Source: a virus
Taxonomy: Duplodnaviria; Caudoviricetes
DNA: 43,090 nucleotides
Strand: one strand, 5' to 3'
Virus record (IMG/VR): IMGVR_UViG_3300030328_003813
Span: 1 to 43,090 of that record
Below, one piece after another: positions 13,069-31,309 of the stretch. Positions within the stretch are counted from its first letter, which is position 1, and every line of letters starts with the position of its first letter. The notes beneath the pieces are model-generated. The model saw only the letters and a program-made list of their open reading frames with translations. It did not search any database and was not told where the DNA came from. Position numbers and translations under genes: made by a program.

Positions 13069-13119
13069 TGTGTCTCAGTGACACATCAGCAAGTATCGGG
13101 ATAACGTCCCACTCGTCAA
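13069..13119 (-). promoter_or_regulatory. Candidate sigma70-type early promoter with operator-like palindromes
   Basis: TTGACG(13119-13114)-16 nt-GATACT(13097-13092); GGGA-N5-TCCC inverted repeat in the spacer; TGTGTC-N5-GACACA at 13069-13085 near the start site. Confidence 0.55.
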
Positions 13120-13325
13120 CAGCACTTGTCACAGTTTCGTGGCGAAAGCCCTATTTCCGTCCACCATTCACCAGGGTTTTTGCGTTATTTACGGTGTGTT
13201 TGGCTGAAAAAGTTTTTTTGCATTCACACAAAATTTTCAGTCTCTGGCAGGACACGCAACGGCATTTCTGGCATATTGTCGTGCCTTCTGGGCTTAATTC
13301 CTGGCAGTGATTACAACGGGCGACC

Positions 13326-13670
13326 ATGAGATTCCTTTACGATTTCGACAATCCGGAGTTCAGCGATCCGGATCCTGATCGCAGCAGCCGCACGATGCTG
13401 CACCAGTATTTGCTCGAAAAAGAATCCACCGCCGTTTGCATGGATGGATATGATGATGCGGTCTGCGGCGTACTTTTTGACGGCGAAAAGGATCGCGTGA
13501 TTTACTGCTACGCTTCAATGGTGGCTTGCCTTATGCGTGATGGCATGTCAAGCGAGGAAGCCACGGAATACCTACATTTCAACACAATCGCAGCGTTGCC
13601 AGACGGTGGCCCGATGATCATCGACCAGGCTTTTCCGGTTACGATTCAAATCCGCGAAAAAGACGAATAG
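13326..13670 (+). CDS. Phage hypothetical protein (114 aa); the only credible plus-strand gene
   Basis: Occupies a gap with no minus-strand gene; MDGYDDAVCG...VIY...LMRDGMSSEEATEYLHFN...P resembles a family I recall from aquatic phages. Confidence 0.75.
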   Translation: MRFLYDFDNPEFSDPDPDRSSRTMLHQYLLEKESTAVCMDGYDDAVCGVLFDGEKDRVIYCYASMVACLMRDGMSSEEATEYLHFNTIAALPDGGPMIIDQAFPVTIQIREKDE

Positions 13671-13714
13671 CAGCGCATGGCGTAATTAACGCAATCCTTT
13701 GCGTCGTGCGTCTG

Positions 13715-14467
13715 CTATTCAACTTCCACAGGGCCATCGCCCTCGCGTGCAGCCAGGATAGCGTCGTATTGCTCCTGCATCTCTGCCTGGCGAGCAGCCA
13801 CTGCCGTATCGAGCCCGGTAACGTCGCGATTCCATAAAACGCCTCGAGTTGCGTCGTCAACAGCAGGGCCGCGATGAGCCTCGAGCGTGAAAGTCAGAGC
13901 GCTAAATTTCGTCCCTTGGCTGCACTCAATCGGGGAGCTCATCATAATAGTCGGAAAATTGAAGCAGAACCAATCCTCGCTTTTGTCAGCTGGAGCAGCG
14001 ACGGTGATCGGATTGTTCCTGGCCGGCACGATCAGGAGCCTGAACCGATGCAACTGCAGGATCGGCGTGCCGACCTCGTAGTCGTAGATAGCTCCGTTGG
14101 TCGAATACGCGCTATTCTGACGCTCTACCCAGTAGCGTACACGCTGGTTCCAGGTGCTCAGGTTGATGCTCAACTGGACAATTCGTCCCAACACCTGGCG
14201 TTCAATGGGTGGCCCCTGGGGACCGCCATTAGAGTCACCAGGCACGTCGTTAAAGAACTCTCGCGTCACAATCGCTGTGTCATCCATCTGTTCGCCGAAC
14301 CAATACAGAGTTGCATTAGGCGTGGATCCGTCCGCGATATAGAGATTCGATCCGCCGGCAACCTGGACGTTCACGTCCTGGAGCTGGTCGGCTCCCGCAT
14401 TAGCGTTCGGATCAGGAATGCTCGCGACTGCTGGGGGATCGGTATTTAGTGGTTCGCGTCCTGTCAT
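13715..14467 (-). CDS. Probable tail tube / major tail protein (250 aa)
   Basis: Follows the head-tail adaptor; size and beta-rich pattern (VQLSINL, FNFP, LTFTLEA) fit a tube protein. Largely a positional inference. Confidence 0.5.
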   Translation of the reverse strand: MTGREPLNTDPPAVASIPDPNANAGADQLQDVNVQVAGGSNLYIADGSTPNATLYWFGEQMDDTAIVTREFFNDVPGDSNGGPQGPPIERQVLGRIVQLSINLSTWNQRVRYWVERQNSAYSTNGAIYDYEVGTPILQLHRFRLLIVPARNNPITVAAPADKSEDWFCFNFPTIMMSSPIECSQGTKFSALTFTLEAHRGPAVDDATRGVLWNRDVTGLDTAVAARQAEMQEQYDAILAAREGDGPVEVE

Positions 14468-14981: not shown

Positions 14982-16022
14982 TTAGCTCAGGATATTCTCG
15001 AACCGGAACCCAGAAGCAGGAGCCGTCGAAACTACGTCGAAGTCGTCAACGACATGGCCCTCTGTGCGTCTGTCGTTTTCGTTGTCGTTCGTCCAGACGG
15101 TCATGTCCTCGAACAAGAACAAGTGAACAGTGCTGAACGAAGGTCCGCCGCTCTCGGCGACCAGGCTACCTGGTCGAGCCAGGAGGTAAGCATAGTCATT
15201 GTTTTGGATGAACGAACTTGCAAGCGTAGCGCCTCGCTTGCTGCTCACTCGCACCGCGTCCTCCACAACAATGTCGATGCCGTACAGCCGATCGGGAAGT
15301 TGATACTCTCCCCACTTGCCAGCGTCGCCAACGACCTGGCTGTAGGCGTCTGGCGAGCTCTTGATGTGTTCGACGATCTCCTGGCTCTCGCTCATCGCGT
15401 GAGCCGCATCTGGTGACAGCACCAGCTGCAAGTCTTTTCGGCGAACCACGGACAGCGTAGCCAGCATCACTTTTTCGACCGCGTAGGCGAGCGAGCGTTT
15501 GATGTCCTGGCGAGCACTCGTGGACTGATCCCAGTTTCCTGAGTTCCCAGGAATTGTCGTCACGTCAATCGAGTGACCGGTTGCCCAGGATCCTGCAGTC
15601 TCGAGCAAGCCATGCACACTTAACGTGCGAGCTGTCATCGCCTGCTGTGCCTTAATCCGGCTTTGCGACTCAATGATGTTCCAGTCAGCCTGCTCTGACG
15701 CTTTTCGGCCAATGGTAAAATCGTAGTCGTAACGCTCGGTTTCGTAGCCTTCAAATTTGAACGACTCGGTGCCGTTGTTCCGACTCGGGCGAGGCGCACC
15801 GTCCGGCCAAACGAACTCAGCCAGGTTGGCGTTCAGGACGCGAGCTGCTTCCTCTGGAGTAATCTTGAGGTAATAGCCCGCAGCCTTCTGCACGTTCGAG
15901 AGCTGGATATAGCTGTTCAGTGCGAACTCGTCTGGGTTGCGTGAAAACTCAGTAATGAGCCGACCTGATGCGTCCAGGTCTTTTACAAAAGTGTTATTTC
16001 CGCCTGGATATGCAATAGCCAT
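14982..16022 (-). CDS. Major capsid protein (346 aa)
   Basis: Position after the protease/scaffold and cement genes; size; HK97-fold-like motifs LVLSPDA and LPDRLYGIDIVV; AGGA SD. Confidence 0.85.
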   Translation of the reverse strand: MAIAYPGGNNTFVKDLDASGRLITEFSRNPDEFALNSYIQLSNVQKAAGYYLKITPEEAARVLNANLAEFVWPDGAPRPSRNNGTESFKFEGYETERYDYDFTIGRKASEQADWNIIESQSRIKAQQAMTARTLSVHGLLETAGSWATGHSIDVTTIPGNSGNWDQSTSARQDIKRSLAYAVEKVMLATLSVVRRKDLQLVLSPDAAHAMSESQEIVEHIKSSPDAYSQVVGDAGKWGEYQLPDRLYGIDIVVEDAVRVSSKRGATLASSFIQNNDYAYLLARPGSLVAESGGPSFSTVHLFLFEDMTVWTNDNENDRRTEGHVVDDFDVVSTAPASGFRFENILS

Positions 16023-16104
16023 ATCAAACTGTCCTATAAAATTTGGGGGGGTTAAATCTGTTTACAGTCCCGCCCCAGGACTGCTGTTAATTTTCGCAGT
16101 GTGG

Positions 16105-16545: not shown

Positions 16546-18462
16546 TTACTCAGCTGACAGCTGTGTTTTTGCTTTTTCGACTGCTTCTTGGTAGGTCAGA
16601 CGATTGCCTGATTTAATTCCTTGGTTCACCAGATCCAGCGCGGTATCAGCGACGCGAGCGGCGAACTTGTCACTTTTCACGTCGCCTGATCCCATGCCGT
16701 CGTATCCGAGGGGAATCATTGGCGACTGAGGTGCCGTGACAGCCGCGTACTGTTCGATCAGGGAAAGCCGAGAATCAAATTCTTCGTTTGTTGGAGCATT
16801 TTCGTTGTTTTTGTAGAGGCAGTGCTCCATTTCCTGCTTCAAGTCCACCGCGCTGTACCGATGCGCCAGGTTGGTCAAACGCTCTTTACGCTCGGCGTCG
16901 ATAGCGTGCTGCCGTAGCTGCACGACCTCGTGCTGCGTCGCGGCGTACATTTGCGCTTGCTCTGTTAGCAGGCTGTCATTGTGTTTCTTTAGCTGATTCA
17001 GCTCTTTACGCATTGATTGGTTTTCGGCGTGGATCGCTTGATATTGATCTCGGTTCATGTTTCCCTCGCTGGTGGAATCATATCGGTGATAGCCTGGCAC
17101 AGCGCCAAACTGTTGTCTCGGGGTCGCGGCCAGGTTTCCTTCACCTGGTCCTGCGAGAATCTTGGCTAAAATGCCCTGCTTTCTTGGCTGCTGTTGGCCT
17201 TGTCCTTGGCCCCGGTTCATCGCTTTTTGAGCTGCCATTGTTCCGGCTGTTTGCCCGGCTGCCTTGGCACCTTGCTGCAGTGCCATGCGTCCTGCTGCTG
17301 CGATGGCCGGCGCGACGTTTTGATCAATTTCTTCCTCTACAACTTCCTCCTCCATGCCAGGCCCCATCGGTGGCATCGCTTCGGCTCCCATGCCGGGATC
17401 GACCATCCCAGGATCCATCCCAGGATCCATTCCTGGATCCATTCCAGGATCCATGCCAGGATCCTCCATCGGTGGCTCTGGCATACCGCCGGCCATCGGA
17501 TCCATCATCCCTGGATCGCCTAGCTCGTTTTGCCCTGACATCACCGGCTGGTCTTGTCCTATAGCCTGCGCCGCTTCGCTAATTGCTTTCCATTCTTCCG
17601 TGCTCATCAGTGCGTTGAGCACTTCGCGTATCATGTCAGGATCCGCTGCGGTGTTGCCGTACATATCTTTACCTTGGTTTCTGTCGCGTTTTGTTTTCGA
17701 GTTTTTGCCAAACGTGTTCATCCCTCCAGGGAATACCGCGTTAAGCGCTGGCGTCGCGTCGTATCTTTCCACGGTTACAGCGTCGTCATTCTCCGCTGCA
17801 GCTGCGTATTGTGCTGTGGTTGGCAATGGCAGCCTGGGCGCTTCCGATAGTGCAGCTATTGGATCTATGTACCGCCTTCCGTTGGCCTTGAGCTGGAGCA
17901 CTTCCACGCTTCGATTTGGCCGATCCTGGAGCTGTTCCCGTCTGTCATTACGCTGCCACTCATTGGCAAAAATACCCCATCTCGGATTCTTTCTGCCCAT
18001 CATGCCGAGCCGGTAAGGACCGACAAATCCTAGATTTTTGGGTGGATCAGGATCGCGATATGGTGGGGGCAACGTGTGCTTGTCTACCAGGGCTGTGTAC
18101 GCATCCGTGTCCTGGATCCGGTGATTGTTTTCACGCACGATCCTGGTCAGCTCATTCAGATCGTAGTTCGTAATCTGCTCTTGCCCTTCCGCGTCATAGT
18201 TCACTTTTTCGTGTTCCATGAAAAACGGCCTCGGCGACGTTGCCGTGTACTGCTCGCCCGCAAAATAGCGATTAGCCTGATCGAGCAGCTGGTTGCCTTT
18301 TGAGCGGTCCCAGCTATTCCACACAGCCTGGTTTCGCTCTGCTGGATCCGGCACCTGATCCGCGAGCGCATGGTGAGCTCGGACAATAAAATCCTCCTCG
18401 GATTCCTGTTGTCCTGGTTGAATCGCCACCACTGGTTGCTGTACTGCATCCATGATTTTCAA
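16546..18462 (-). CDS. Mu gpI-like prohead protease-scaffold fusion (about 638 aa)
   Basis: N-terminal DKHT...LGFV...RPNRSVEV...IAALSEAPRLPL resembles the Mu-type protease (His/Ser); low-complexity linker; C-terminal coiled coil ending TYQEAVEKAK. The start may be the ATG three codons downstream. Confidence 0.7.
   Translation of the reverse strand: MKIMDAVQQPVVAIQPGQQESEEDFIVRAHHALADQVPDPAERNQAVWNSWDRSKGNQLLDQANRYFAGEQYTATSPRPFFMEHEKVNYDAEGQEQITNYDLNELTRIVRENNHRIQDTDAYTALVDKHTLPPPYRDPDPPKNLGFVGPYRLGMMGRKNPRWGIFANEWQRNDRREQLQDRPNRSVEVLQLKANGRRYIDPIAALSEAPRLPLPTTAQYAAAAENDDAVTVERYDATPALNAVFPGGMNTFGKNSKTKRDRNQGKDMYGNTAADPDMIREVLNALMSTEEWKAISEAAQAIGQDQPVMSGQNELGDPGMMDPMAGGMPEPPMEDPGMDPGMDPGMDPGMDPGMVDPGMGAEAMPPMGPGMEEEVVEEEIDQNVAPAIAAAGRMALQQGAKAAGQTAGTMAAQKAMNRGQGQGQQQPRKQGILAKILAGPGEGNLAATPRQQFGAVPGYHRYDSTSEGNMNRDQYQAIHAENQSMRKELNQLKKHNDSLLTEQAQMYAATQHEVVQLRQHAIDAERKERLTNLAHRYSAVDLKQEMEHCLYKNNENAPTNEEFDSRLSLIEQYAAVTAPQSPMIPLGYDGMGSGDVKSDKFAARVADTALDLVNQGIKSGNRLTYQEAVEKAKTQLSAE
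17392..17470 (-). repeat. 12-bp tandem repeat encoding (DPGM)n in the scaffold linker
   Basis: GGATCCATCCCA-type units; protein EDPGMDPGMDPGMDPGMDPGMVDPGM. Confidence 0.9.
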
Positions 18463-18496
18463 ATCCTATACGGTTTTTAGGTTCGACTGCAAGCTA

Positions 18497-18793
18497 TTAC
18501 GGCGTAATGGTTTTACCACTCTCCAGAGGGTCGCCCATATTAGCCTCGCAAAAGAATGCTGTCACTTTTCCCTCCAGGTGTTTCACGATCTCCTCGCACG
18601 CCCAGACAGCAGCGTCACCTTTGTCGGGTGTCCATTGCTCCCAGGACGCGTAGTGATTAGCAATATCCTGATACAGCTGATTCCCTTCTGATCCTACCCA
18701 GAAGCCGTCAGAATGCAGCAGTAGTACATAATTCCGGTGATCGAACGTGGCCAGGATCTCCAGTTCGTCCGCTTCGTCTTGTTCGTTTTTCAT
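18497..18793 (-). CDS. Small acidic protein (98 aa), possible inhibitor/partner of the upstream metallopeptidase
   Basis: ATGA overlap with the 919-aa gene; GAGGATTGCT leader. Function inferred from position only. Confidence 0.6.
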   Translation of the reverse strand: MKNEQDEADELEILATFDHRNYVLLLHSDGFWVGSEGNQLYQDIANHYASWEQWTPDKGDAAVWACEEIVKHLEGKVTAFFCEANMGDPLESGKTITP

Positions 18794-21549
18794 AGCAATC
18801 CTCTGAGTGATGCGATTGTGAAATTGAAGTGATCCGGTGATGCTTTTGCGAATGCGATCGGCTTTTCGTGCAGTGCCTGGATCCCCATTGATAGCACCTC
18901 CGACGCGTCAGCAGACCCGTAATATTTTCCTGTGTACGCACTCATAAAACCGTTTTTGCTGCCTACCTCATCTGCACGGGTGCCGCCGCCTACCCATTTG
19001 GTTTTGTGTTTTTGAATTGCCGCTGCCTCGAATGCTTTGGTTTTCCTGCCCTGGTCGGTTTCGCTGTCGAGTGTGTGGCCGAGCTCGTGCAGGAGTATGC
19101 CCTTCATTACCTGGCCGGGGTTCATGTTGATGGATGCACCTCGAGCAAACGACCGGTTTTTGTCGGTCGTGGCATAGTTCACGGTGTGATCTGCGAGCGC
19201 GCCGCCTGACCAGGTTTCGAGCGTCTGCACCGCGTCCGCGACGCGATCTTTTACAAAATCGGGCACGGTCGATCCGTACTTGATGTTAATTGCAGGAGGC
19301 TTGCCCTCTGCTCTGCGTCGATTGCTCGGCAGAGTCTTTATCCAGTCAGTCAATGCTGTGTATTGCTTGTCCCGTTCGTCAGATAGGTCTTGTTTCATTG
19401 AATCGTATTTTGCACGCCACTCCTTCCACACCTCGAAATCACTGTCGCTGACTTCCATTTTCAGGTGCTCATCCATTGCTTCCTGCTTTTTGTCTATTTC
19501 CTTCGTCAGTTTTTCATACCCTGCCAGGAACTTCTTGCGTTCCTTGTCCACATATTTGTTAGCCGCTGTTTTCAGCTTCCTGCCGAGTGTCGCACGCAAT
19601 CGGAACGTATCTGTTTGCTTGATGCCTTCCACTGTTGCGGAGGCTGTCACCGATTCCTTCTTTTTTTCGCGTTGATCAGCCGGCACCCAGGGGCTTTCGC
19701 GGTATTTCTCATAGGCACCCTCTGGCACATCCTCGCCTCGCTTCACGGCTTGCATCACTTTGCGGCGATGCTCTTTTAGCATTTCGCTGATCTGCTCCGA
19801 CGCAGCCCAGCCAGCTTTCTGATTAGTAAGCCAGAACGCGATCCCCTTTACCGGCATGTCCTGGTCCAGAGATTCGTGCATTGTGTTGCCGAGCCACGGC
19901 AGCGCGTTATACACGTCGTTGCTATAGAAATATTCCTTGGGGTTCAGTCCGTGCCGCTTCGCAGCTGCCTTAAATCCAGGTCGGTCGTTCTCGATTCCTT
20001 CCCACCACTCACTCGCTACCTTTGCCATGCTCTCCTTTTCTATATTCTGATGCACTCGCTGCAGGAACTTATCGCCCTCAGTTTTTCCGTTCAGCGTTGC
20101 TAGTCTTGCTTTCTCCTCTTTCAGAACCCTCGCCAGGAGCCATTCCTGTTGAGTCAGCGTACCTGGGTCTGCTGCCTCGAGCTCCTCCCTGGTTCCGTAC
20201 TTTTTGATTGCGTCCTTTATTTTCCTTCGCTTGTCTTTCCTGGGTTCGTACCCGATTGTGTTTTGCTTTGCTTTCAGCTTTTCCCTGGCGGATTCCATTT
20301 TTGGCGTCGTGGGACTGTTTCCCTTTGTCCATTGGCCTCCCCCTTTCTCGCCTTTCTTTTTTCGCGGCTGGTCCTTCCATGCCTTTCCTTTACCGTCAAA
20401 AAGTCTTTCCTGCTTGTCGCCTTTTGTGCGGAATTTCCCCGTGAACTCATCGTCCCACAATCCCAGTTGGCCAGCGTACCTGGCGACGGCTTCGCGGAAC
20501 GTCATGGCGCTAAATTCATCCACGGACTCGGTGACGGTCTCGGGGAATAACTCCGCAACCTGTGCCTTGATGTCGTCGTACAAATCCCAGTCGTCATCAG
20601 CAGCAGCATCGTTCGCCTGCCTCATTAGATCGCTGTATTGCTTGTCTCGATCGCGTTCCTCTTTAGATCGCTCATCTGGCTCCTCTGTGCCGGTCATGCG
20701 CTCGTAGGCTTCTGATAGCACATCTAGGTCGTATGCCTTCGGTGGCTGTGGTAGCGGCATCCTCAGAGCCTCCAGGACCACTTGCTCCGCTGGTATTTCA
20801 CCCCCGCTGTCGCGGGCCCAGCTAATGGCACCAGGGGGAAGGTAAGCAACCAGGTCATGGATTGCGCTCTGGTCGTTCTTCCATCCTCCTGAGCTGGCTA
20901 ATTCTGCCACTGCTTCATCAAATCCTCGGATTGAGCTTGCGTCGCTGGCTGATCTTGCTTGCGACTGTGCTCCCGTCAGCTTTCCGGCGTCACCAAACAC
21001 CTGGCGAAGTGCATCCTGCCCAGCCTGGATCATCTGAGTACGCTCAGAAACTACTTCATTTGCCACATCCAGCAGCTCTAGCAATTCGTCTTTGGTTGCA
21101 TCCTCTGGCAGAAACCTTCCGACGACTCGATCACGGAAACCAGGTGGCAGCCGCTTACGCTTCGTCTTGACTTGCTCATCGTCCTCGAGCCAGTCAGGAA
21201 TTTCCTCGTCACCAGGCGGCTCGGGCACGCTGTCCTCGAGCTTGCGCTGCTTTTCCGGCTTCCGCTTGAACTTGCCGGTAAATGGATCGTCGAACGTGCC
21301 TAGCTGGCCTGGGCTATCTCGATCCTGCTTTTTGCCCTTGCCTGGCTTCACCTGGCCTTGCTTAAAGTCTTTCCAGTATCCAGGGCTGTCGCTTTTCGGG
21401 TTGATTTTTCCGGAGTCGGTAACGAATATCGCCTGTTTTTTCCCGTCGCCGTCGGGATCCACGCTGATAAATTGTCCACCCTGGGGATTTGCTGCCTTGT
21501 ATTGGTCCAGGTAGGCAGCCACGCGTTGCGAAAAGGTGATTTTTGGCAT
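18790..21549 (-). CDS. Polyvalent head-associated protein with C-terminal zincin metallopeptidase (919 aa)
   Basis: HELGH at 19075-19089 followed by AYTGKYY...SEVLSMG; short phage-head motifs GGQFISV...IFVTDSGKI and WKDQPR...GGGQWT; AGGA SD. Confidence 0.75.
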   Translation of the reverse strand: MPKITFSQRVAAYLDQYKAANPQGGQFISVDPDGDGKKQAIFVTDSGKINPKSDSPGYWKDFKQGQVKPGKGKKQDRDSPGQLGTFDDPFTGKFKRKPEKQRKLEDSVPEPPGDEEIPDWLEDDEQVKTKRKRLPPGFRDRVVGRFLPEDATKDELLELLDVANEVVSERTQMIQAGQDALRQVFGDAGKLTGAQSQARSASDASSIRGFDEAVAELASSGGWKNDQSAIHDLVAYLPPGAISWARDSGGEIPAEQVVLEALRMPLPQPPKAYDLDVLSEAYERMTGTEEPDERSKEERDRDKQYSDLMRQANDAAADDDWDLYDDIKAQVAELFPETVTESVDEFSAMTFREAVARYAGQLGLWDDEFTGKFRTKGDKQERLFDGKGKAWKDQPRKKKGEKGGGQWTKGNSPTTPKMESAREKLKAKQNTIGYEPRKDKRRKIKDAIKKYGTREELEAADPGTLTQQEWLLARVLKEEKARLATLNGKTEGDKFLQRVHQNIEKESMAKVASEWWEGIENDRPGFKAAAKRHGLNPKEYFYSNDVYNALPWLGNTMHESLDQDMPVKGIAFWLTNQKAGWAASEQISEMLKEHRRKVMQAVKRGEDVPEGAYEKYRESPWVPADQREKKKESVTASATVEGIKQTDTFRLRATLGRKLKTAANKYVDKERKKFLAGYEKLTKEIDKKQEAMDEHLKMEVSDSDFEVWKEWRAKYDSMKQDLSDERDKQYTALTDWIKTLPSNRRRAEGKPPAINIKYGSTVPDFVKDRVADAVQTLETWSGGALADHTVNYATTDKNRSFARGASINMNPGQVMKGILLHELGHTLDSETDQGRKTKAFEAAAIQKHKTKWVGGGTRADEVGSKNGFMSAYTGKYYGSADASEVLSMGIQALHEKPIAFAKASPDHFNFTIASLRGLL

Positions 21550-21567
21550 TTCTAGTTCCTGATGAAA

Positions 21568-24500
21568 TTACGAGACTGCTGAATATACGAATTTTCCCGC
21601 TTGCTCGCCGATCTCTGCAAACTCGGGTGCGTGCGCGGATTTTACCTGGCGTCTAGTGAACGCGACAAACACGTCCGCAGGTTCCAGATCCCCGTGATCT
21701 ATATCCTCACCACCTTTGCCGCCGTGGTCGCGTAGGTCGCGGAAAACGACGCCATCAAAACCGCTTTCCTCGGCTAGATTAGCCAGATCCCTCGTTGTCG
21801 CGTCCCAGGGAATTTCGTAAATGATTTTTACCAGCTTCCTCAATACAGCGTCTCTATCGGCAAAAATTGCGGCATACCCTTCTCGTGCATTTTCTTCTTG
21901 TAGCATGTGTTCCTGGACACGTTCTGCCGCCGGCATGTTTCCCTCTGCATACGCTTGCTCGTACTGATCCTGCAGTCCAGGGCTGCGTTCGGGCAGTTTT
22001 TCCATTGTTTTTACAAGCGCACGCATCAGAGTCTGCGGAAATGTCGCGCTCATGCCTCGCATGTTTCCTACCGTTTCAGCCGCGTTCGCCATATTTTTTT
22101 GGAACTGGTCCCTTGCAATGTCCACCGCCTCGTAGCTGTCAAATAATTCTTCATAGTTATTTTGCCCCTCGAGTATGTCAAACAAATAACTTGCAGCTGT
22201 CGTTTGCAACACGCCAGTAATTTGCCTCTGGTGTTTTGTCATTTCCGGCCCTCTGAGTGGGTCGTCCATTCTGTCAGCCCTTTTTTGCATTAGCGATTGC
22301 ATTATGGGGCTATCCCATATCTCATCGCTGGTTTCTGGCATGAGTGGAATGCGATTCCAGTTTTCTCCGCGTCCGTCAACGATCATGGGGTTCGTCAGTC
22401 GGTACACGAGCGGGTACACGCCGCTGGTTCGCAAGCCAGCCGTATTGTCGCCAATCCAGCGATTCCACTTCACAACTAATTCCTCTGGAGTAGTTGCTGT
22501 CAAAACCTGGTCGCTGCTGTCCAATCTCGCGTGCACAGCAAATCCATCACCGTACTCCGCCAGGCGAAACTCTTTGGACGATCGCAGCGTGCGTTCAATG
22601 TCGTCCACGCTTGTGGCGAAGCAGGGTGTAATGTCGTCAGTCCATCCTCCGGTATATGTTGAACCCGTCCGCACACTGGTGGATCCATAAATGTGCTCTC
22701 CAACGTCAAACCTGGTGAAATCATTGAAACCGCCCTCCGTGGTTCCGTGGAAGATAATCAACGGCAGCCCTTCGTCATCGACCGCATAGTTGTCTCGCCC
22801 CCATTGCCAGTAGTTGGGGTTGCTGGCCACTTTCAGCTGCAGGTCTCGCAGCTGCCCCCGTGCGAGAGTGGTGAGGTTTGCGTTGTACTGCTCGCCGTTG
22901 ATTCCCTCCCACTGCTCGGCTGCTTCTTTCGCGTCATGCGCTGCGTCATAGTTATCAGCAACTTGGCTCAGCGATGCCATTAAAGAACGCATTTCCGGAG
23001 CGGCCTCAACTTGAATCATGTCCTGCAGTTCCGCTCGAAAATTCCTGTCCCGGTCGCCTTCCACACCCTTTCCAGGCATGTACGCGTCGGGAAGGTTTGT
23101 CTCAAGAACCGCGACCAGACCATTCAACTGATCCATTGCTACGTTATTTTCTCGCCACTCATTCCAATCGCGGAATGCCCATTCGTGCAAAGCATTATGG
23201 CCTTCGGGAATCCACAAATATTCTCTACCTTCGTCCTGGGATCCAAATTGGCTCGCAGCACTATCTGGCCAATGGATTGTGGCTACCTGCTTTCCCTGGT
23301 CCATCGGCTGATCGCCGATTAAAACTGGATCCTCCAAATCATGGACGTTGAAAATTAAGTTCTTGAAAATCATCGTCAGACTTTTGGCGTCGTTTTGATG
23401 GTCATACGGGTCGTATGGCATTGAGAAAACAAGAACTGACTCGCCGGTAAATGGATTCTGCATATACAGCTGCGATTCTTTCTCGCCGATTTCGTTTTGA
23501 CCTACCTTGGCGGTGTATTCCAATTCCTTTGTAGCAGGCGCGGTTTCGGAAATGTTTTGCCTGGTTAGTCGCACCTGTTCGGCTAGGACGTTATACGAGT
23601 CGTTCAGCCTCGCGTTGGCTGCGATTGTGTTGTCCTGTAGCTGCTTCTTCTCAGTGTCCAGGCCGCGAATTGTTTTCTGCGAATCGCTCATTTGTTTCTG
23701 CACGACGCCGATTTGTTCTTTTGCGTGTCGTACCTGGCTGCTCACCCAGTTGTTGATCTTATACGCCTTTCCTGTCGCGTCCTGGCTGCCGAGCTCGTCC
23801 GTTGCTGCTACGCCCTGGATATGTTTTTTGGGCACTCGGAACACCCTTGTGTGATCCTCATAATCGTGTTCCAGGTTGTTTCGCATTTCCTCCATGCGAT
23901 CGCGAGTCTCTGTAGCTTCTGCTAGGTCTGCTTGCATTTGTTCCCAGCTGCTCGTCACCCAGGGTTCGCTCTCGTCCCACACTGCATCCCCCCAGTCGTT
24001 TTCAAACTCTTCGGCGCTTGCTTCCATCTCCATAACTCGCCGTTCCTGCTTCGCCAGTTCCTGGTCTAATCGCGATCCTGCGCCCTGGCCAACCATTCGT
24101 TGCCACTCCTCCACGCCAGACTTTTCAGTGAGGAACACGTTGCCCTTGATGTTAAATTCCAGGTTGCTGTCAAAATTGCTACTCTGGTTCGGCTTCAATC
24201 CTTGTTTTGCGACTGCATCAGCAACACTTACCGGAGCGATGTGATACAGGTAATCATCATCCTCCCAGCCTGTGAGCTGCTTTGGCTGCTCTGGAAATGC
24301 CAGCTCGTAATGCTTTTCTGCTTGCTTGAATAACTGCGAAGCCCCTTCGCCTTCGTAGTTTTTCAGAGCGTTGTATCCCAGGCGAGCCATGTTATTTGTC
24401 CAGTTTTCTTGCTGTTGCGGCGTAAGGTCATCCGTTTTCAGCAACTGCCCAAGCGGATCCTTGGGACTCTTATCGTATTCCTCAAATTTGCTTGCCAGCC

Positions 24501-27500
24501 ATTTCAGCGACTCAGGGTTCTTTTCAATTTTCGGCACAGGTTCCGGTGCAACGTGCTCGTACGGCTCCAGGTGCTCTGCCCTGACTGCCGCGCCGTCGCT
24601 TTCCTCGTAGTCCATTCGCGTTTCGCTGCGATCAGCGACTGTCTCGGGATCGGCTATCTCTGTCTGCACGCCCATTGCCTTCGCAAATTCCTGACCTGGC
24701 TTCGGTGGTTCGTATCCTTCCATGTCGTCTGCTGCGTATCGGATACGCGGGTCGTTGCGATCGAATGCACCCGAGTTGCCTGTAACGCTCTTTATCTGCT
24801 CCGGTCGCAGCGCTATGAATGCCTGGTTATCGTCGCCTTCGCCCTCATAAATATTGTTGTACGCAATGCCGTCATACCCTGCTTCTTCCAGAGCATCCCG
24901 CAACAGTATCCAGTTTTTTCGCTTCTTAAATTTTTCCCACGCGCCGTGGTAATTGTTGAACCAGGCGTGTTCGTTGCTCACTTCTGGCACCAGGTCCATC
25001 ACCTCGTCGTTCCAGTCGCCGCGATCTGGCACCTCCTCATCGCTAATAAATTCCGGCCACGGTATCCCTTTCGCTTCCAAATCTTCTTCCATGTATGAGG
25101 TGATTTCGTCTACGTCCCACCGCCCCAAGTCGTCTGTTGTCAACGGATTTTGAATTGAGAGCCACACTGGCATGATGCGAGCGTTGTCGTGGTATTGATT
25201 CCCTATGGCTCGCTGCGTTTCAGTAAATTGCGCTGCTTGGCTTAGATCACCGAAGTGGGCTCCAATATCGCTTCCTCGCATTGTTTCAAACAGTTGCAAA
25301 TCATCGTCGGCTGTGGTTCCGTGCATGTACGGTTTTGGTGTGCCGTCAGCATTGACCACTTTGCTGTTGCCAAACCAGGTTGCAAATTCTGGCGTATCCG
25401 GTGCCTCGTATTCAGGTCGGTGGTCTGGCTCGGAAATGACTGGAATCGACTGCCAGCCTATTCGTTGCGCAGCTAATGCCGTCGCAACTGATTCCGCGTT
25501 TTTTCTGTTTTTATAAAACAGCAATGGCGGGAACTCGTATCCCTGCCGCATCGACCACTCTTTATCGTCAATTTCGCTTTCCAGTGTTTCCTCGAGTGCT
25601 CTCAGCGTCGCGTGAGGTATTGCGCCCAGGTAATCATCCAGGTCGATGTATCCAAACGATCCCCCGTTCATGTAAGCCTGCGTGTGCTGATCCGGCCATT
25701 CGTCACGCGGCACCATCTGCCATTCGGTTGGTTCATTAACACGCTCGCCGATGGCCGCCTTTCGTAACTGCTCGATAACCTGGCCGGCTGTTGGGTTGTC
25801 CACGTCCCACTCCTGGATCGCGTCGTTCTGGCCGTTGCCGAAACGGATTGACATATAATCCGGCTCGTAATCGCGAATGTAGTTGGCAATTACCCTTTCT
25901 TGCTCCGTCGTGGCTTCTTTTTCCAGGTGCAGCAATCCTGACGGGTCAAATCGTATTGCTCCTGAACGTGCAAGTGTCTGCACCAGCAATCCCCAGCGGC
26001 TGGTCGATCCTTCTCCTGAATCGCCCTGGCCATCCATTGCCCAGTCCCATCGCTGCGCGGCTTCCTCTGTTGGGATAATTGAACGATGGTCGTCGCCTCG
26101 CACTTCGCCACCGCCCTGGCTCATGTCAAGCAATGCGCCGTCTGCCATGATGAACCCTGCCGGTCCCAGGCTGTATCCCTCTGGGTACTGGTTCCGCATG
26201 AACGTGTCCATGTCCGGCTCTTGTGCCGGCTCGTATTTTCCGCCATCGGATGTGGTCTGCCCTGGGTGTAATTCCTCGCCCTGGAGATTTAATCCGAGAC
26301 TCTCTTGCAGTTCTGCAATTTCTCGCATGGCACGCCCCTCATCGCCTGCTGAGTGCAACACGTCCGCATCCATTGCAAACCCAGCCAGGTTAATGTCGTC
26401 CCCCCAGCTCTCATACGCTTTGAAGCCTAGCATCCCTAGCTGCTCTGGCGACAAATCCTCAACCATTTGCCCAAACAAGTCCTTGTTTGTTATGTGCTCA
26501 TCCAGGCTTTCTTTGTGCGGTTCGTCGTCGTCGTCAATGCCTTCGTACTCTGTAACCAGGTCCGCGAACGCAACCTGTGCATCGAGCATCCTGGTGTCCA
26601 TCACGTCGTTCAGCTGATCCGACTCCCAAAAATCAATCAGCGTCGCAATTTCCTGCTTGTGCTCGCTGTCGGGAATTTTCTCGAGCACCTCTCGCACGTC
26701 GTCAATCACAAACGGTGCAGCGTCGTGGTCGTGCTCAATCATTGTTTGCAGGTTAAGGCTGACTTTCTGTGTTTCCCCTGCCAAATGTTCTGCGTAATTT
26801 GGATCAGTTGCAGCCCACTCAAAGTGCTGGAGATTAGTTTTCAGCTCGTTGTCTAAGGTTTCGTCGTCATAATGCCCGTGCTCGCGTAGCAGTTTGCCTG
26901 GGTGCCTATCCTGCTGCCAGGAATCGTCGTCGCCTGGTGTTGTCCTGGTTAGCTTGCCAGTGTCGTAGATCCTGATATTGCCCTGGTCGTCCACTCCAGT
27001 CTGAACATCATCGCCGATTCGCCAACCGGATTCCGTCAGCGCTCGCATCTTGTTGCGGTAGTCAATGATCTGCTCACGCGATAGCTCGGCATCCAGGTCG
27101 AGCTGTTGCATTGTGGTGAATCCTTTTTCACCATGCTGCGTGAACTCTTGCGGTAGCAGCACATCATGTCCGTCCGCGATCGCCTGGTTCGTCAGCTCTG
27201 CCTGCCTGCGAGCATCTGCAATCGCGTGCTCGTGTTCGCGGAAATATGCCAGGTTGTAGGGAACGCTGGTCGATACCTTGGTGACTTTTCCGTCACCCGT
27301 TGCGAATGCCAGTCCGTCGTCACCTTTTCCCAGGAACTGCGCCCTGCCTTCGCGAATAGCGTTAATGCCCTGGTGCGATGGGTGCTGTGGCACATCGACA
27401 CGCTGATTTAAGTCGTCAGAAAAATGCTTTACCGCGTCCGGCTTCATTGTGTAGGTGCCACCGGTCTCGCTGCTGACCGTAACACTGTGTCCGTCACTGT

Positions 27501-27684
27501 CGCCCACGGTAAATGTGTGCTCTCCAGTAATCTTTCGATTCTCGGCGCTTCCTGTGTACGCCGGAACGGTAAAGGTCTCGCCTGGAGCATGGCCTAGGCG
27601 CGGCGAGGACTCGCCAACAGGGGAGGGTGTGACCATCTGCCCTTCGCCTGATCCCGGTGCATCACCGGGATCTTCCGCCGGCAA
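21568..27684 (-). CDS. Large polyvalent effector protein (2038-aa ORF; about 2714 aa if fused to the upstream ORF): kinase-like plus three ADP-ribosyltransferase-fold domains
   Basis: Kinase-like FLGKGDDG...VTKV...IYDTG. ART-PolyVal-like FATWFGNSKVV...HGT...PVWLSIQNP...GYDGI...QIKS.TGN.G.FD. A YHIAP...KQGLKP...VFLT ART-like domain. A second ART-PolyVal-like FHGT...VYP...NP...GFDGVVF...QVKS. Confidence 0.8.
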   Translation of the reverse strand: MPAEDPGDAPGSGEGQMVTPSPVGESSPRLGHAPGETFTVPAYTGSAENRKITGEHTFTVGDSDGHSVTVSSETGGTYTMKPDAVKHFSDDLNQRVDVPQHPSHQGINAIREGRAQFLGKGDDGLAFATGDGKVTKVSTSVPYNLAYFREHEHAIADARRQAELTNQAIADGHDVLLPQEFTQHGEKGFTTMQQLDLDAELSREQIIDYRNKMRALTESGWRIGDDVQTGVDDQGNIRIYDTGKLTRTTPGDDDSWQQDRHPGKLLREHGHYDDETLDNELKTNLQHFEWAATDPNYAEHLAGETQKVSLNLQTMIEHDHDAAPFVIDDVREVLEKIPDSEHKQEIATLIDFWESDQLNDVMDTRMLDAQVAFADLVTEYEGIDDDDEPHKESLDEHITNKDLFGQMVEDLSPEQLGMLGFKAYESWGDDINLAGFAMDADVLHSAGDEGRAMREIAELQESLGLNLQGEELHPGQTTSDGGKYEPAQEPDMDTFMRNQYPEGYSLGPAGFIMADGALLDMSQGGGEVRGDDHRSIIPTEEAAQRWDWAMDGQGDSGEGSTSRWGLLVQTLARSGAIRFDPSGLLHLEKEATTEQERVIANYIRDYEPDYMSIRFGNGQNDAIQEWDVDNPTAGQVIEQLRKAAIGERVNEPTEWQMVPRDEWPDQHTQAYMNGGSFGYIDLDDYLGAIPHATLRALEETLESEIDDKEWSMRQGYEFPPLLFYKNRKNAESVATALAAQRIGWQSIPVISEPDHRPEYEAPDTPEFATWFGNSKVVNADGTPKPYMHGTTADDDLQLFETMRGSDIGAHFGDLSQAAQFTETQRAIGNQYHDNARIMPVWLSIQNPLTTDDLGRWDVDEITSYMEEDLEAKGIPWPEFISDEEVPDRGDWNDEVMDLVPEVSNEHAWFNNYHGAWEKFKKRKNWILLRDALEEAGYDGIAYNNIYEGEGDDNQAFIALRPEQIKSVTGNSGAFDRNDPRIRYAADDMEGYEPPKPGQEFAKAMGVQTEIADPETVADRSETRMDYEESDGAAVRAEHLEPYEHVAPEPVPKIEKNPESLKWLASKFEEYDKSPKDPLGQLLKTDDLTPQQQENWTNNMARLGYNALKNYEGEGASQLFKQAEKHYELAFPEQPKQLTGWEDDDYLYHIAPVSVADAVAKQGLKPNQSSNFDSNLEFNIKGNVFLTEKSGVEEWQRMVGQGAGSRLDQELAKQERRVMEMEASAEEFENDWGDAVWDESEPWVTSSWEQMQADLAEATETRDRMEEMRNNLEHDYEDHTRVFRVPKKHIQGVAATDELGSQDATGKAYKINNWVSSQVRHAKEQIGVVQKQMSDSQKTIRGLDTEKKQLQDNTIAANARLNDSYNVLAEQVRLTRQNISETAPATKELEYTAKVGQNEIGEKESQLYMQNPFTGESVLVFSMPYDPYDHQNDAKSLTMIFKNLIFNVHDLEDPVLIGDQPMDQGKQVATIHWPDSAASQFGSQDEGREYLWIPEGHNALHEWAFRDWNEWRENNVAMDQLNGLVAVLETNLPDAYMPGKGVEGDRDRNFRAELQDMIQVEAAPEMRSLMASLSQVADNYDAAHDAKEAAEQWEGINGEQYNANLTTLARGQLRDLQLKVASNPNYWQWGRDNYAVDDEGLPLIIFHGTTEGGFNDFTRFDVGEHIYGSTSVRTGSTYTGGWTDDITPCFATSVDDIERTLRSSKEFRLAEYGDGFAVHARLDSSDQVLTATTPEELVVKWNRWIGDNTAGLRTSGVYPLVYRLTNPMIVDGRGENWNRIPLMPETSDEIWDSPIMQSLMQKRADRMDDPLRGPEMTKHQRQITGVLQTTAASYLFDILEGQNNYEELFDSYEAVDIARDQFQKNMANAAETVGNMRGMSATFPQTLMRALVKTMEKLPERSPGLQDQYEQAYAEGNMPAAERVQEHMLQEENAREGYAAIFADRDAVLRKLVKIIYEIPWDATTRDLANLAEESGFDGVVFRDLRDHGGKGGEDIDHGDLEPADVFVAFTRRQVKSAHAPEFAEIGEQAGKFVYSAVS

Positions 27685-27701
27685 GTCCTCGCTGTACCTA
27701 T

Positions 27702-29711
27702 CTACTTTTTTTTTTGCATTGAATAGTATTCCACGGCTTCACCCCAGGAACTGAAAAGCGTCTGCTGGTCTGGATCTTCGTCTTTATCAAATAACGATTT
27801 TTCCCTGGCTTTCCCCTGGGGATTTTCCTGCTTGTATTGCTTCGGCACCTTCTTCTTCTTGCCCTCACCAAACAAGCCTAGCTGATCGCCCTCACTAGCG
27901 TCCTCGTTGTCCACGTCGTCTGTGGGCATGACGATGCCTGGTTGATCTTCTTCGACAATTCGGTGCTCTGTCATCTGATCGTTTAACGCGCGAAGCAACC
28001 CAGTTTTTTTGTTGTAGGTGTACTTGGTGCTGCTTCCGACAAATTTCACCTTGCACTTGTCGGGATTCTTGCCAGGCTCCACTGTTTCGATTTCACGCTC
28101 TACTTCTTTGTCGCTCTGAACGTACCCTGGGTTAGCGTAGGTCATCTTGCGCTTGGTTGTAATTTTGTCGCCAGGCTGCAAATTTCCGGTTTTGCTTCCA
28201 GCTGTAAATTTCCCGTCATCATCTCTTGGGTGGTCCGACTCGTTGAACGCTCCAAACTGATCTGGTTCCTGCGTTGTTTCCTGGATCCTGGAAACCTCTT
28301 TTTCCCCGTATGACTGCTCTGCTGGCTTCTCTTTCGGCAATGGTGGGATCGGGCCTTCTACTGGTGGTCCTGGTTCCTGCGGGGCTGGCTGCATCATCCC
28401 GTGCAATTCTTTGATGTGTTTGTTGCCGATGTTGACCAGGTTTGTTGTTCCCGTAGCTCGCTCTGCCCAGTGTCCTTTCTGGTGTAAGTGCTCCATCAGG
28501 TAGTAAGCGTAGCCAGGATCTAGGTGCTCACGATTGACAGTGATGCCAATACTTTCCGGATGGAACTCTTTGTGCGGCTTGCCGACTGTTTTTGAACTGC
28601 CTCGCCTGGCGATCCAGAAATCCGCGTCGGGGTGGTTCGTTTTTGCCGTGAACATTGTCGGCTTTGCTGCTTTCGGTGGCGGGATCGCATTCACCTGCAT
28701 TGGCTCGTACCCTGGCTCGTATTTGTCTACTGCCTGGTTCCTGTCGCGTCTGGTCATGTTCCTGGCTACAGCGTCGCCAACAGGGCCAGCCATTCCACGT
28801 CCGACTGATCGCATGGCCGTTCTGGCTAATCCGATCGGGCTTGTTTGCTTAAACCCGGTAACGAAATCGCCGACAACACTTCCGGCTCGCTCGCTACCTG
28901 TTGCATCCTGGACAGGTTCTTGCGGCTCATCAATCGCTAATCCGTTTTGTTTCAAAATCTGCACCAGGCGTGCTCGAGCTGCTGGACCAGCGTACTCGAT
29001 GGCTCCGTGGAGCTGCTCGGGCGTTGTGATTACGCCCCACATATCGAGACCTAGCATTTTCGCAAATTGTTGCAGTTGCTGCGGGCTGCCCTCGTACACT
29101 CCCGCAGTTGCCAGCTGGTCATCCTGTCCCAGTTGATCACCCTTTGCGTGCAATTCCTGGGCATAGTTGGCCGGGTTTCCAGCCTGCACAGCTGGATCCC
29201 AGGCTTCCTGCTCAACTGGCGGTGGCTGTGTGGCGGGCTTTGTGGTGCGTCGCTCTTGTATTTCTTGTAACTTTTTGGCAGCCGCATCGCTAAATTTTCG
29301 AGTTTCTGCCTCGTGCAGCGCGTCGTCGTCGAGATTGCTTTGATGTTCCGGTAACTGTTCCCACCTGGCTTCCGCTTCGTCGGCTTCCTTCTCCCACTTC
29401 ATTTCGTTGTAGTCTTGCTCCATCTGCTCGGCCCACGACAATTTTGGAGCGGGAGCCACCACATAATTCCCAGCTTTTCTGGGTAAACCCGTCGCCTTGT
29501 TAAAACCCATGTCTGGGGCTGGCTTTGCCGGCGCACTTGCCGGCTCACTTGCCGGCTCACTTTCGGGCGCACTCTGTGGCTCTCGGGCCATTTTCTTGGC
29601 AGCCTGGTCTGGGTCTGGCTTGTTTAACTCTGCTGCTCTGCCTGTTAGCGGGCTGCCGTCCAAGTACGCATACCGTTCAACGGCGTCGCGAAATGATGTT
29701 GCATTGCTCAT
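27702..29711 (-). CDS. Head-associated multi-motif protein in the MuF position (669 aa)
   Basis: Directly after the portal (1-nt overlap). Low-complexity linkers, an HsdS-like segment (about 28405-28655), FNESDHPRDDDGKF motif, an SH3/KOW-like segment and QLGLF motifs. No MuF domain recognised. Confidence 0.7.
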   Translation of the reverse strand: MSNATSFRDAVERYAYLDGSPLTGRAAELNKPDPDQAAKKMAREPQSAPESEPASEPASAPAKPAPDMGFNKATGLPRKAGNYVVAPAPKLSWAEQMEQDYNEMKWEKEADEAEARWEQLPEHQSNLDDDALHEAETRKFSDAAAKKLQEIQERRTTKPATQPPPVEQEAWDPAVQAGNPANYAQELHAKGDQLGQDDQLATAGVYEGSPQQLQQFAKMLGLDMWGVITTPEQLHGAIEYAGPAARARLVQILKQNGLAIDEPQEPVQDATGSERAGSVVGDFVTGFKQTSPIGLARTAMRSVGRGMAGPVGDAVARNMTRRDRNQAVDKYEPGYEPMQVNAIPPPKAAKPTMFTAKTNHPDADFWIARRGSSKTVGKPHKEFHPESIGITVNREHLDPGYAYYLMEHLHQKGHWAERATGTTNLVNIGNKHIKELHGMMQPAPQEPGPPVEGPIPPLPKEKPAEQSYGEKEVSRIQETTQEPDQFGAFNESDHPRDDDGKFTAGSKTGNLQPGDKITTKRKMTYANPGYVQSDKEVEREIETVEPGKNPDKCKVKFVGSSTKYTYNKKTGLLRALNDQMTEHRIVEEDQPGIVMPTDDVDNEDASEGDQLGLFGEGKKKKVPKQYKQENPQGKAREKSLFDKDEDPDQQTLFSSWGEAVEYYSMQKKK
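27705..27715 (-). other. Candidate -1 frameshift site A_AAA_AAG (A10 run) joining the 669-aa and 2038-aa ORFs
   Basis: ATG CAA AAA AAA AAG TAG; the -1 frame continues GTA GAT AGG TAC AGC GAG GAC TTG CCG (VDRYSEDLP), in frame with 21568..27684. Confidence 0.7.
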
Positions 29712-31309
29712 TACAAATAAGTCTCCACCCGATTCTTGAATGCCCGGCTCATCGCTGCGCCGTTCGCACTGTTTTGATCAATAACTTGGCCCAGGTCGAT
29801 CGGTGCCTGAGCCGGCTGCCCTGGTTCTGGCATACCCTCCATTGGCATACCAGGATCGGCACCTGGCATACCCATTGCCGCCTGGCCTGCTTGCATAAAT
29901 GCAGGATTCTGCAGCACCTCGTCGTCTGCATCTGGCATGGATACGCCGATCGTATCTGCTACTTCGTCAGCGCGGATCTTCATTCCCATGTCCCAGGCCA
30001 TTTTCATCGACGCAAGCCGGCGATCGCTGTCGGGCTCCTCGGTGCTGATTCTGAACTGCAGTCGGATCCCGGCACTGTCGGGGAAATTCCATAGCTGCAG
30101 CGGTCGCAGGAAATCCGTGGTTATCGTTTCCTCGAGATTAACACTGTCGTACTGAACAATGTCTGCCAGGGTTGCCAGGTGCGCGTCGGCCACGCCACTG
30201 CCCAGGCCAGTCGCCTCGGCTTCGCTGCTGAGCACTTGGCCCAGGATGAATCGCTTGATCTTGTGACCCCAATACGTCCGTATCATGTCGATCGTCGTAT
30301 TGATTCCTCCCAGTCCTGGCTCAACCAATCGCGGAACAAACAGCTCCTGGTCCTCGCCTGGCTGAATCGGCGCGAGAATGATTGTACGACCGCCGCCCAT
30401 TGCCTCCTCGGCTGCTTTCTCTGTCGCTTCTTTCTGTGCCGGGCTTCCTGCCTGGTACGGCCATATTTCCACGCCGAATGCTGCTCTGTCCAGGTATTCC
30501 ACCACTCGCTGGAGGCACTCGATCATCGCGTACCAGTCCCAATAGATATAATCTCGGATCCCTACGCCGTTAATCCTGCCGGCTAACTTTGGCTCGAAGA
30601 AAGGCGCGTCCTCGATCATGTGCTTATGCACCACTGCCTGGCGTCGTTCCCATTTGTCCAGCCAGTAAACCAGTCCCTCCTCGGTAGGCTGAATTTTCTG
30701 GATCACCTCACCGGTATTTGGATCCATGTAGTTCCTGGGAGCGGAGTAGGCTGTGCTGACGCGTATTCCAACCTGGCCATCGACGTGTTTCAGTGTCCCG
30801 TCGTCGAACCGAAATTTCAATTTGTCGCCGTTCCTGGGCGACCATTTCCTGCAGCAAATCCGGTTGATCCCGCCGATTCTCTTATTTTCAAATTCACCCA
30901 ATGTCATGTACCGGCCATACCACAGCGATTCCAACAGGCACCGCCGCATTTCCGCGAACCTGGGTGTTTCCTGCAAAATGTCAGTCATACATCGCACGAG
31001 CTGCTGCTGCTCGAAACTAGCAGAATCCTCTGGCTCAATGCTCCAGTTTTGCAGGGCTACAGCTCTTTGCCTGGCGTGCAACGATTCCATGATCCCGCAA
31101 TCATTGCGCATTCGATACGCGTTGGCGCGGCTATCGTTTATCGCTTGATCAGCGCTCAGATATGAGTAGCTGACCAGGCCGTATCTGCCGTTTACGCTTG
31201 AAACGTGCGGCAGAATCTCGCGACTGTAGTTGGGTGCTCCGCTTGTGCCAGCTGCGGGATCCTTTGGCCTGCTATACAGAAATTCTGCCGGCAAACTGCT
31301 ATCGTCCAT
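29711..31309 (-). CDS. Portal protein, DUF935 / Mu gp29-like (532 aa)
   Basis: ARQRAVALQNWSIEP, ESLWYG, ILGQVLSSE...GSGVADAHL...TITTDFLRPL...NFP motifs; located after the terminase. Confidence 0.88.
   Translation of the reverse strand: MDDSSLPAEFLYSRPKDPAAGTSGAPNYSREILPHVSSVNGRYGLVSYSYLSADQAINDSRANAYRMRNDCGIMESLHARQRAVALQNWSIEPEDSASFEQQQLVRCMTDILQETPRFAEMRRCLLESLWYGRYMTLGEFENKRIGGINRICCRKWSPRNGDKLKFRFDDGTLKHVDGQVGIRVSTAYSAPRNYMDPNTGEVIQKIQPTEEGLVYWLDKWERRQAVVHKHMIEDAPFFEPKLAGRINGVGIRDYIYWDWYAMIECLQRVVEYLDRAAFGVEIWPYQAGSPAQKEATEKAAEEAMGGGRTIILAPIQPGEDQELFVPRLVEPGLGGINTTIDMIRTYWGHKIKRFILGQVLSSEAEATGLGSGVADAHLATLADIVQYDSVNLEETITTDFLRPLQLWNFPDSAGIRLQFRISTEEPDSDRRLASMKMAWDMGMKIRADEVADTIGVSMPDADDEVLQNPAFMQAGQAAMGMPGADPGMPMEGMPEPGQPAQAPIDLGQVIDQNSANGAAMSRAFKNRVETYL

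Follow-up and report, generated by a model that had tools for sequence, protein, structure and literature searches.

In the phage genome of IMG/VR record IMGVR_UViG_3300030328_003813 (Duplodnaviria; Caudoviricetes), two large reading frames of the head module meet at a run of ten adenines, which raises the question of whether they are expressed as separate genes or joined by a programmed change of frame. In the window, i.e. the whole 43,090-nucleotide stretch of this record, both lie on the minus strand: a 669-aa open reading frame (ORF1, 27702–29711), for which no Pfam or PHROG family was found, and an ORF of 2038 aa (ORF2), annotated at 21568–27684 from a TTG at 27682–27684. Based on a comparison of related genomes we are confident that recoding at the ORF1/ORF2 junction is programmed, and we moderately favor host RNA-polymerase slippage on the run of nine to ten adenines as its main cause.

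At the junction the minus strand reads ATG CAA AAA AAA AAG TAG, ORF1 thus ending Lys-Lys-Lys-stop. The A10 run (27706–27715), the predicted slippage site, is the longest homopolymer of the window and contains an in-frame heptamer of the type X_XXZ_ZZN, A_AAA_AAG. Past the run the -1 frame reads KKK-VDRYSEDLPAEDPG and enters ORF2, which gives a trans-frame segment of 2045 aa (21568–27705). The predicted products are 669 aa (74.0 kDa) for ORF1 and 2714 aa (304 kDa) for the ORF1-ORF2 fusion, so that the junction, the -1 entry and the length of about 2714 aa had been stated correctly in a first-pass annotation of the window. With 62 coding-strand A runs of length 5, 15 of 6, six of 7, none of 8, one of 9 and one of 10, a long A run is by itself not improbable; what exceeds chance is its conservation.

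Relatives were collected by portal, ORF1 and ORF2 searches, and 15 records span the junction (L001, L008, L009 and L051, which are too short, and 12 distant kinase loci were omitted from this tally). Eight of the 15 are in the slippery state, representing five distinct sequences: the window, L045, L005, L006, and L007 with L052–L054. Here the junction follows the pattern NNA AAA AAA AAG TAG ATAGGTAC, ORF2 lies in the -1 frame, and the lysine codons are preceded by CAA, GTA or TTA; the other four lineages have A9 in place of A10, and the frame relation is unchanged. The heptamer plus stop, to whose fate in related genomes the first-pass annotation had pointed, is therefore kept in all five lineages. 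In the seven remaining records (L011–L013, L046–L049; the ATG subclade) ORF1 ends CGG TGA, and ORF2 starts in the +1 frame at an ATG four bases on, behind GGTGAG, at roughly the position of the window's TTG; downstream RNA is unstructured in these records. Not one of the 15 records is fused. No equivalent slippery head junction occurs in the stretches of L010, L019–L041, L075, L076 and L078–L087, where other cargo layouts are found.

Conservation is concentrated in a core of 21 nt (27694–27714), comprising A9, G, the frame-0 TAG and ATAGGTAC, whose -1 frame encodes VDRY. It is the sole invariant stretch longer than 11 nt in the five-way alignment of about 4.5 kb, although L005–L007 have identities of 33–35% in ORF1 and 47–52% in the ORF2 N-terminus, and synonymous sites are near saturation among the five lineages (79 of 564 codons invariant at amino-acid-invariant sites). 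For the six synonymously free sites in the core, which were picked after inspection, the joint chance of invariance is about 8e-6. The core also holds a second TAG (27698–27700), which closes the third frame two codons past the run and is kept in all five lineages; as background, none of 41 Arg columns is all AGR and two of 42 Asp columns are all GAT. Moreover, L007 leaves room for the shift only at the run, since a stop closes its -1 frame two codons upstream of the A's and another ends frame 0 one codon downstream.

At the protein level, ORF1 ends in KKK in 15 of 19 homologue clusters and in TTR or AKR in the other four. When a profile search is included the tally is 20 KKK ends among 27, with five of the ATG type or similar, one carrying seven extra residues and one whose tail is unrelated. 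Judging by its protein sequence only, the added tail of the extended form (P0046) is compatible with a -1 frame that codes for VDRY (chance 3e-4) and with continued closure of the third frame. ORF1 was found at the N-terminus of ORF2 in none of the 24 close ORF2 homologue clusters, and a whole-protein search for fused ORF1 homologues among longer proteins returned none from 7996 candidates, which is weak evidence. Taken together, the conserved site, the lack of a conserved ORF2 start and the absence of fusion in close relatives support the programmed change of frame put forward in the first-pass annotation.

In the mechanism we favor, host RNA polymerase would insert one additional A into some of the transcripts at the A9–10 run. 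Unslipped mRNA would be translated up to the frame-0 TAG, yielding the 74 kDa ORF1 protein; with one added A, reading would continue through VDRY into ORF2, yielding the predicted 304 kDa fusion; with two added or one missing, translation would end at the second TAG. A ribosomal slip may add to the fusion yield. Five points argue for the polymerase, two of which concern the core itself. At least nine A's are retained in five of five lineages, while the heptamer A_AAA_AAG needs six. In all five, moreover, GTAGATAG closes frame 0 as well as the third frame, which explains the fixed GAT and AGR codons; the second stop would matter if transcripts with two additional or one missing A arise. According to passages of PMC5009743, a run of nine A or T is an efficient slippage run, and at dnaX of T. 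thermophilus, where the polymerase slips on nine bases and both remaining frames are closed by stops, slippage is linked to the presence of two Lys tRNAs.

The window offers a second site for comparison, which likewise speaks for the polymerase. The coding strand's one other run of nine or more is an A9 at 173–181 (minus strand), which ends a 113-aa ORF (168–509) and, with a conserved -1 ORF, resembles the G/GT-like junction of tail chaperones; the ORF has no Pfam match, the assignment resting on position and pattern. A tail-chaperone search of 25 loci gave 14 matches; in 13 of these an A8 (four) or A9 (nine) run precedes C, G or T, and a -1 ORF of 85–102 codons is conserved. Runs of A8–9 are found at this junction in L103–L107, L019–L022, L026, L078, L082, L084 and the window. 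Possibly, this junction too uses polymerase slippage instead of ribosomal frameshifting; if polymerase slippage holds at the head junction, it would extend to the family's tail-chaperone site, normally taken as ribosomal. We can only tentatively suggest the general form of this notion, in which polymerase stuttering on A8–10 would be a general recoding device of planctomycete phages, serving both the tail-chaperone pair and the dose of a giant injected effector polyprotein, with head cargo in three states (in-frame fusion, slippage-gated, split with an own start) and V-x-R-Y as a family-wide address for head loading and release.

Several observations weigh against assigning the recoding to the polymerase. 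Because a G follows the run, A_AAA_AAG is preserved intact beside the stop, which suits slippage by the ribosome. Neither stop accounts for the invariance of the final bases of AGG and TAC, and the tail-chaperone sites are without a conserved third-frame stop. In the ATG subclade, A9 is also present at four or five unrelated positions within ORFs, and L023 has one such run on the other strand; A9 alone is therefore tolerated, and slippage may be weak. An alternative that we consider possible, albeit rather doubtful, is the main reading of the first-pass annotation without its hairpin: the same two products would arise chiefly through a -1 slip of the ribosome on A_AAA_AAG, with assistance from the neighboring UAG and from conserved 3' bases lying within the ribosome's mRNA channel. 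In its favor, the G is kept in five of five lineages, and the end of the invariant 3' block roughly coincides with the expected edge of the ribosome footprint. A clean -1 slip, however, needs neither the extra A's nor a third-frame stop. In E. coli, A_AAA_AAG ranks with the most efficient motifs (passages of PMC4066793), and the ribosome is also responsible in lambda G/GT and in other phages, where stimulators can be missing (passages of PMC5009743).

The search for a conserved stimulator argues against the ribosomal alternative as well. With a spacing rule of 4–10 nt downstream (passages of PMC4066793), neither a shared hairpin at this distance nor a Shine-Dalgarno (SD) sequence 6–17 nt upstream was found across the lineages; pseudoknots were not searched. 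Downstream folds are unlike among lineages (z of -2.96 to +1.36 over 80 nt), as are the positions of upstream pairing (3–11 kcal). The 10-bp hairpin at 27650–27672, which the first-pass annotation had offered as a stimulator, lies 32 nt past the heptamer, too far away, is present only in the window genome and is probably incidental. Nor does the heptamer itself, proposed there as the operative signal, stand out: four further in-frame A_AAA_AAG copies occur in window genes. Finally, tRNA-Lys(CUU) is encoded in five of five planctomycete genomes with related capsid genes; this argument rests on the hosts of five relatives, which serve as proxies for the phage's own. Shiftiness in E. coli has been tied to its sole tRNA-Lys (passages of PMC5009743). 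The phage uses its Lys codons nearly equally (AAA:AAG = 177:170).

That ORF2 is a separate gene with its own start, the A run and stop being conserved for some other reason, appears unlikely. Seven of the 15 records do have an ATG plus GGTGAG, the window offers a TTG at +17 and an ATG at +65, and for several homologues the called start is a Met immediately ahead of RxGH. In L045 and L007, however, the first start codon lies at +254 and +260 nt, i.e. past the conserved RxGH block, and VDRY is conserved upstream of every ORF2 start. Called starts of ORF2 homologues are scattered, gene callers giving such proteins scattered, truncated N-termini. No internal promoter-like or adjacent terminator-like site was found at the junction. 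As the first-pass annotation had noted, GAGG stands 2 nt before the TTG of the window, but this TTG is no conserved start: it is GAA in L045 and absent in L005–L007. Some further points nevertheless qualify the fusion model. Scored against the anti-SD string of E. coli, the TTG reaches -3.8, about like the capsid gene (-3.9), and the ATG 65 nt past the stop -7.7; because of these scores internal starts could contribute to ORF2 in the window. Moreover, the ATG subclade appears to start ORF2 independently, and the fusion therefore seems dispensable there. Read-through of the amber stop was rejected; the frame-0 extension is short and unconserved.

Very unlikely, in our view, is a phase-variable DNA switch, in which run length would change in replication and only rare genomes would make the fusion, as the first-pass annotation had alternatively proposed for the A10 run. 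Homopolymers can cause phase variation (passages of PMC3711429), and one contig breaks at the run's edge; none of the eight slippery records and none of the 24 close ORF2 clusters is in the fused phase, however, and A10 differs from A9 by a substitution at the run's 5' edge that keeps the frame. Run length was checked on contigs, which drop rare variants, from four of nine listed runs. The contig of the probable source run, with a depth of about 12, matches the stretch throughout; one from another study covers the whole run with no differences, but reaches just 15 nt past it on its short side; a third stops at the run's edge and a fourth misses the run. This agreement is weak independent support, and the comparative evidence is much stronger. 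An A9 in the window would not give one continuous ORF, as the first-pass annotation had assumed, since the frame then reads KKSR-stop; only A11 or A8 would fuse. An assembly error or a recently broken gene can practically be dismissed: homopolymers are error-prone and source depth is about 12, but the frame relation is the same in five diverged lineages, which therefore excludes an assembly slip, the KKK end recurs in 15 of 19 protein clusters, and ORF2 is intact across 2045 codons.

Trees were computed with FastTree only, have long outgroups and disagree on the window's place. In the tree of the ORF2 N-terminus the ATG records are monophyletic (1.0) and sister to L045 (0.93); in the portal tree they fall inside a group excluding L045 (0.945) and are not resolved as a single clade. 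The ATG records are thus nested among slippery lineages, and the subclade likely lost the slippery site. That a nested subclade would express ORF2 from its own ATG weakens the idea of the first-pass annotation that ORF1 is an obligatory carrier of which only a few copies bear the payload.

Beyond the close relatives, in distant phages, the C-terminal block of ORF1 gave 30 weaker matches, 17 of which are proteins of 1226–3496 aa where the block continues in frame; of ten such giant proteins scanned, nine have InPase, LPD1, LPD3, LPD5 or PBECR3 domains. The ORF2 kinase motif is in none of 18 block-bearing proteins among the matches listed, and we therefore regard them as architectural parallels, not as fused orthologues. 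One protein, P0025, unites portal, InPase, LPD1, ART and an ORF2-type kinase in a single frame. Conversely, a domain of ORF1 (residues 347–460, about 28330–28670; weak DUF6943 match) lies inside ORF2 in eight homologues (P0012, P0014, P0015, P0019, P0020, P0022–P0024), which suggests that modules move across the recoding site. With fused, gated and split layouts occurring among relatives, leader-plus-cargo thus appears to be a normal architecture of the family. Several peptides similar to Q-L-x-L-F (QLGLF, QQTLF, QERLF) are present at 27740–27890 and in ORF3 (18790–21549); they resemble the sliding-clamp binding motif, and giant polyvalent proteins of distant phages share the conserved block.

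ORF2 itself appears to be a polyvalent protein, i.e. one with several unrelated enzymatic domains encoded among head and packaging genes, and the kinase and ADP-ribosyltransferase payload proposed for it in the first-pass annotation agrees with model, Foldseek and PF18760 matches. Near the N-terminus (about 26940–27372) lies a protein-kinase-like domain with invariant LGKGDDG, Lys, Asp and D-x-G. Its model (pLDDT 86) ends shortly past the D-x-G strand, the C-lobe being truncated and its helices missing. Foldseek gave 378 matches at E<=0.001, the matches listed being kinase folds (best TkArkI, 9.1e-6) and spanning about 155–190 columns of full kinases. The archaeal kinase ArkI is a tRNA-modifying enzyme, and the kinase substrate therefore need not be a protein. 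A Pfam search with the domain slice returned no match at E<=1, Kinase-PolyVal included, and comparison with PDB sequences was rejected, giving only chance creatine-kinase matches. Judged from the model, the domain nevertheless resembles Kinase-PolyVal, which is without the C-terminal subdomain, the family profile not being matched. Two ART-PolyVal domains follow. The first (24763–25350, residues 779–974 from the TTG) matches PF18760 with 82 bits; the second (21620–22779, lower limit approximate) is split by an insert and matches with 33.2 bits in two stretches (cut-off 31.2 in both cases). Of the H-Y-D residues, read by eye and not from a profile alignment, the His is present in both copies and the strand-2 Tyr apparently in copy 2, being replaced in copy 1. 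Further, unassigned globular segments of ORF2 lie at about 24000–24250 and 26000–26250; one has a His-x-x-Pro start and looks ART-like by eye. A MuF domain had no match in Pfam or PHROGs for ORF1, ORF2, ORF3 or the portal, though remote similarity is possible.

A second cargo gene, ORF3 (18790–21549, 919 aa), carries a C-terminal HELGH, a zincin-like motif, together with copies of a short motif that recurs in the head module. In its typical form, F-x-x-A-V-[DEA]-[RK]-Y, this motif stands at the ends of the portal, ORF1 and ORF3; ORF1 has copies at both ends (FRDAVERYA, GEAVEYYS) and the portal a C-terminal one, RVETYL. Copies recur throughout the window's head module (16546–31309) and in L014–L041. 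In the head-module ORFs of 17 loci V-[DEA]-[RK]-Y was observed 32 times against 3.5 expected (about ninefold), compared with 4 against 1.6 downstream. VDRY, the first new residues in the -1 frame, is itself a copy of the motif, and the ATG subclade is without it. In nearly all of 15 aligned homologues a copy directly follows the protease domain of a 638-aa gene (16546–18462), being VERY in the window. This gene likely encodes prohead protease plus scaffold, with an invariant His and Arg-Ser. The top three VIA structural matches are such proteases, with middling Z of 7.8 (herpes assemblin), 6.7 (T4 gp21) and 5.6; for the protease domain Foldseek against PDB gave nothing at E<=0.001, and Pfam with the alignment nothing useful, so that we hold the assignment with moderate confidence.

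We infer that the motif serves core assembly, cleavage or both. The ORF1 and fusion products would join the prohead core via V-[DEA]-[RK]-Y, common to portal and scaffold, and the prohead protease may cut near it, leaving ORF2 with an N-terminus nearly that of the ATG-subclade product. The kinase and ADP-ribosyltransferase domains would then be injected and modify host targets. Under this model the slippery site would set the expression level, and cargo attachment would not require it. Two points tell against this part of the scheme: the 17 loci are partly related and the motif pattern was drawn from close relatives, and copies at extreme C-termini suit binding better than cleavage. The terminal HELGH domain of ORF3 (18790–19300) is a candidate for a second processing or effector peptidase; it is also found in distant phages.

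Each element has known counterparts. Passages of PMC5512222 (Iyer et al. 2017) describe polyvalent kinases without the C-terminal subdomain and propose a T4 Alt-like modification of the host. With these polyvalent proteins the phage shares a giant multi-enzyme protein among head genes, ART-PolyVal, a truncated kinase, a neighboring HExxH gene and, in relatives (P0025), portal fusions; it differs in that no MuF domain and no Pfam Kinase-PolyVal match were detected and expression appears gated by a recoding site. The words 'frameshift' and 'planctomycet' do not occur in the main text of PMC5512222, whose supplements may list related proteins. T. thermophilus dnaX (passages of PMC5009743 and PMC3711429) likewise has at least nine A's, nearby stops in unused frames and a host with two Lys tRNAs (here proxy hosts), but slippage there yields the short product of a cellular gene and here a predicted long head-module product. 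Lambda G/GT also makes short and C-terminally extended products of a single locus via a -1 change, and the phage has its own G/GT-like site; G/GT is, however, ribosomal and non-virion with a short domain, while the extension here is 2045 aa of predicted enzymes, its fusion dispensable in one subclade. In T7/T3 gene 10, Lactobacillus A2, Listeria A118/PSA and the Ig-like domains, frameshifting likewise attaches cargo to part of the copies of a virion protein, and in-frame and out-of-frame forms coexist across phages (passages of PMC5009743); those extensions are outer decorations of major structural proteins, whereas here internal enzyme-bearing cargo is predicted. MuF-VIP2 of Microbacterium phages (passages of PMC7302621) and T4 Alt resemble ORF1-ORF2 in lying right after the portal with ADP-ribosyltransferase cargo predicted to be injected; MuF-toxin fusions and Alt are plain in-frame fusions or single genes, and the phage has no MuF and another ART clade.

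The phage recoding described so far concerns tail chaperones and extensions at the surface of capsid and tail proteins. No report on recoding of internal polyvalent head cargo was found in a literature search thin on subscription papers, and no recoded polyvalent head protein appears in the passages of PMC2628397, PMC7302621 and PMC3711429 consulted. Frameshifted virion-protein extensions and polyvalent proteins are thus known separately, and their combination appears to be new and is well supported by the comparison, the mechanism being deduced. Since the clade contains both gated and ungated versions of one gene, it amounts to a natural experiment, and the dosing of injected host-modifying enzymes therefore becomes testable.

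The phage contig, from marine metagenomes, is a single, whole circular one of 43 kb with a 99-nt end overlap. Its head module runs on the minus strand from terminase, a KTSC-like gene and a Mu-type portal (29711–31309, 532 aa; Pfam Portal_Mu, E 7.5e-32; PHROG 113), just upstream of ORF1, through ORF1, ORF2 and ORF3 to a 98-aa gene, the protease-scaffold, a 130-aa gene and the major capsid gene (14982–16022; PHROG 1005, E 1.4e-6). A portal search for a cultured relative returned no match in 50,697 phage records. In a species-genome collection seven of eight loci with capsid relatives are in Planctomycetota assemblies, two of them embedded in contigs of 328 kb and 1.13 Mb, and the host is therefore likely a member of the Planctomycetota. 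The eighth, L077, is a 44.7 kb phage contig (44,680 bp, the same size and match as L011) in a gammaproteobacterial bin, a placement which is probably due to mis-binning. A replication/recombination block (YqaJ, DUF1376, DUF6475, DUF6884) with a papain-like peptidase (3611–13715) splits the tail module between the tail tube and chaperone genes, which are adjacent in L078. Two further coding-strand homopolymers, C8 at 12866–12873 and C7 at 16045–16051, are both intergenic, the C7 run lying just upstream of the capsid gene.

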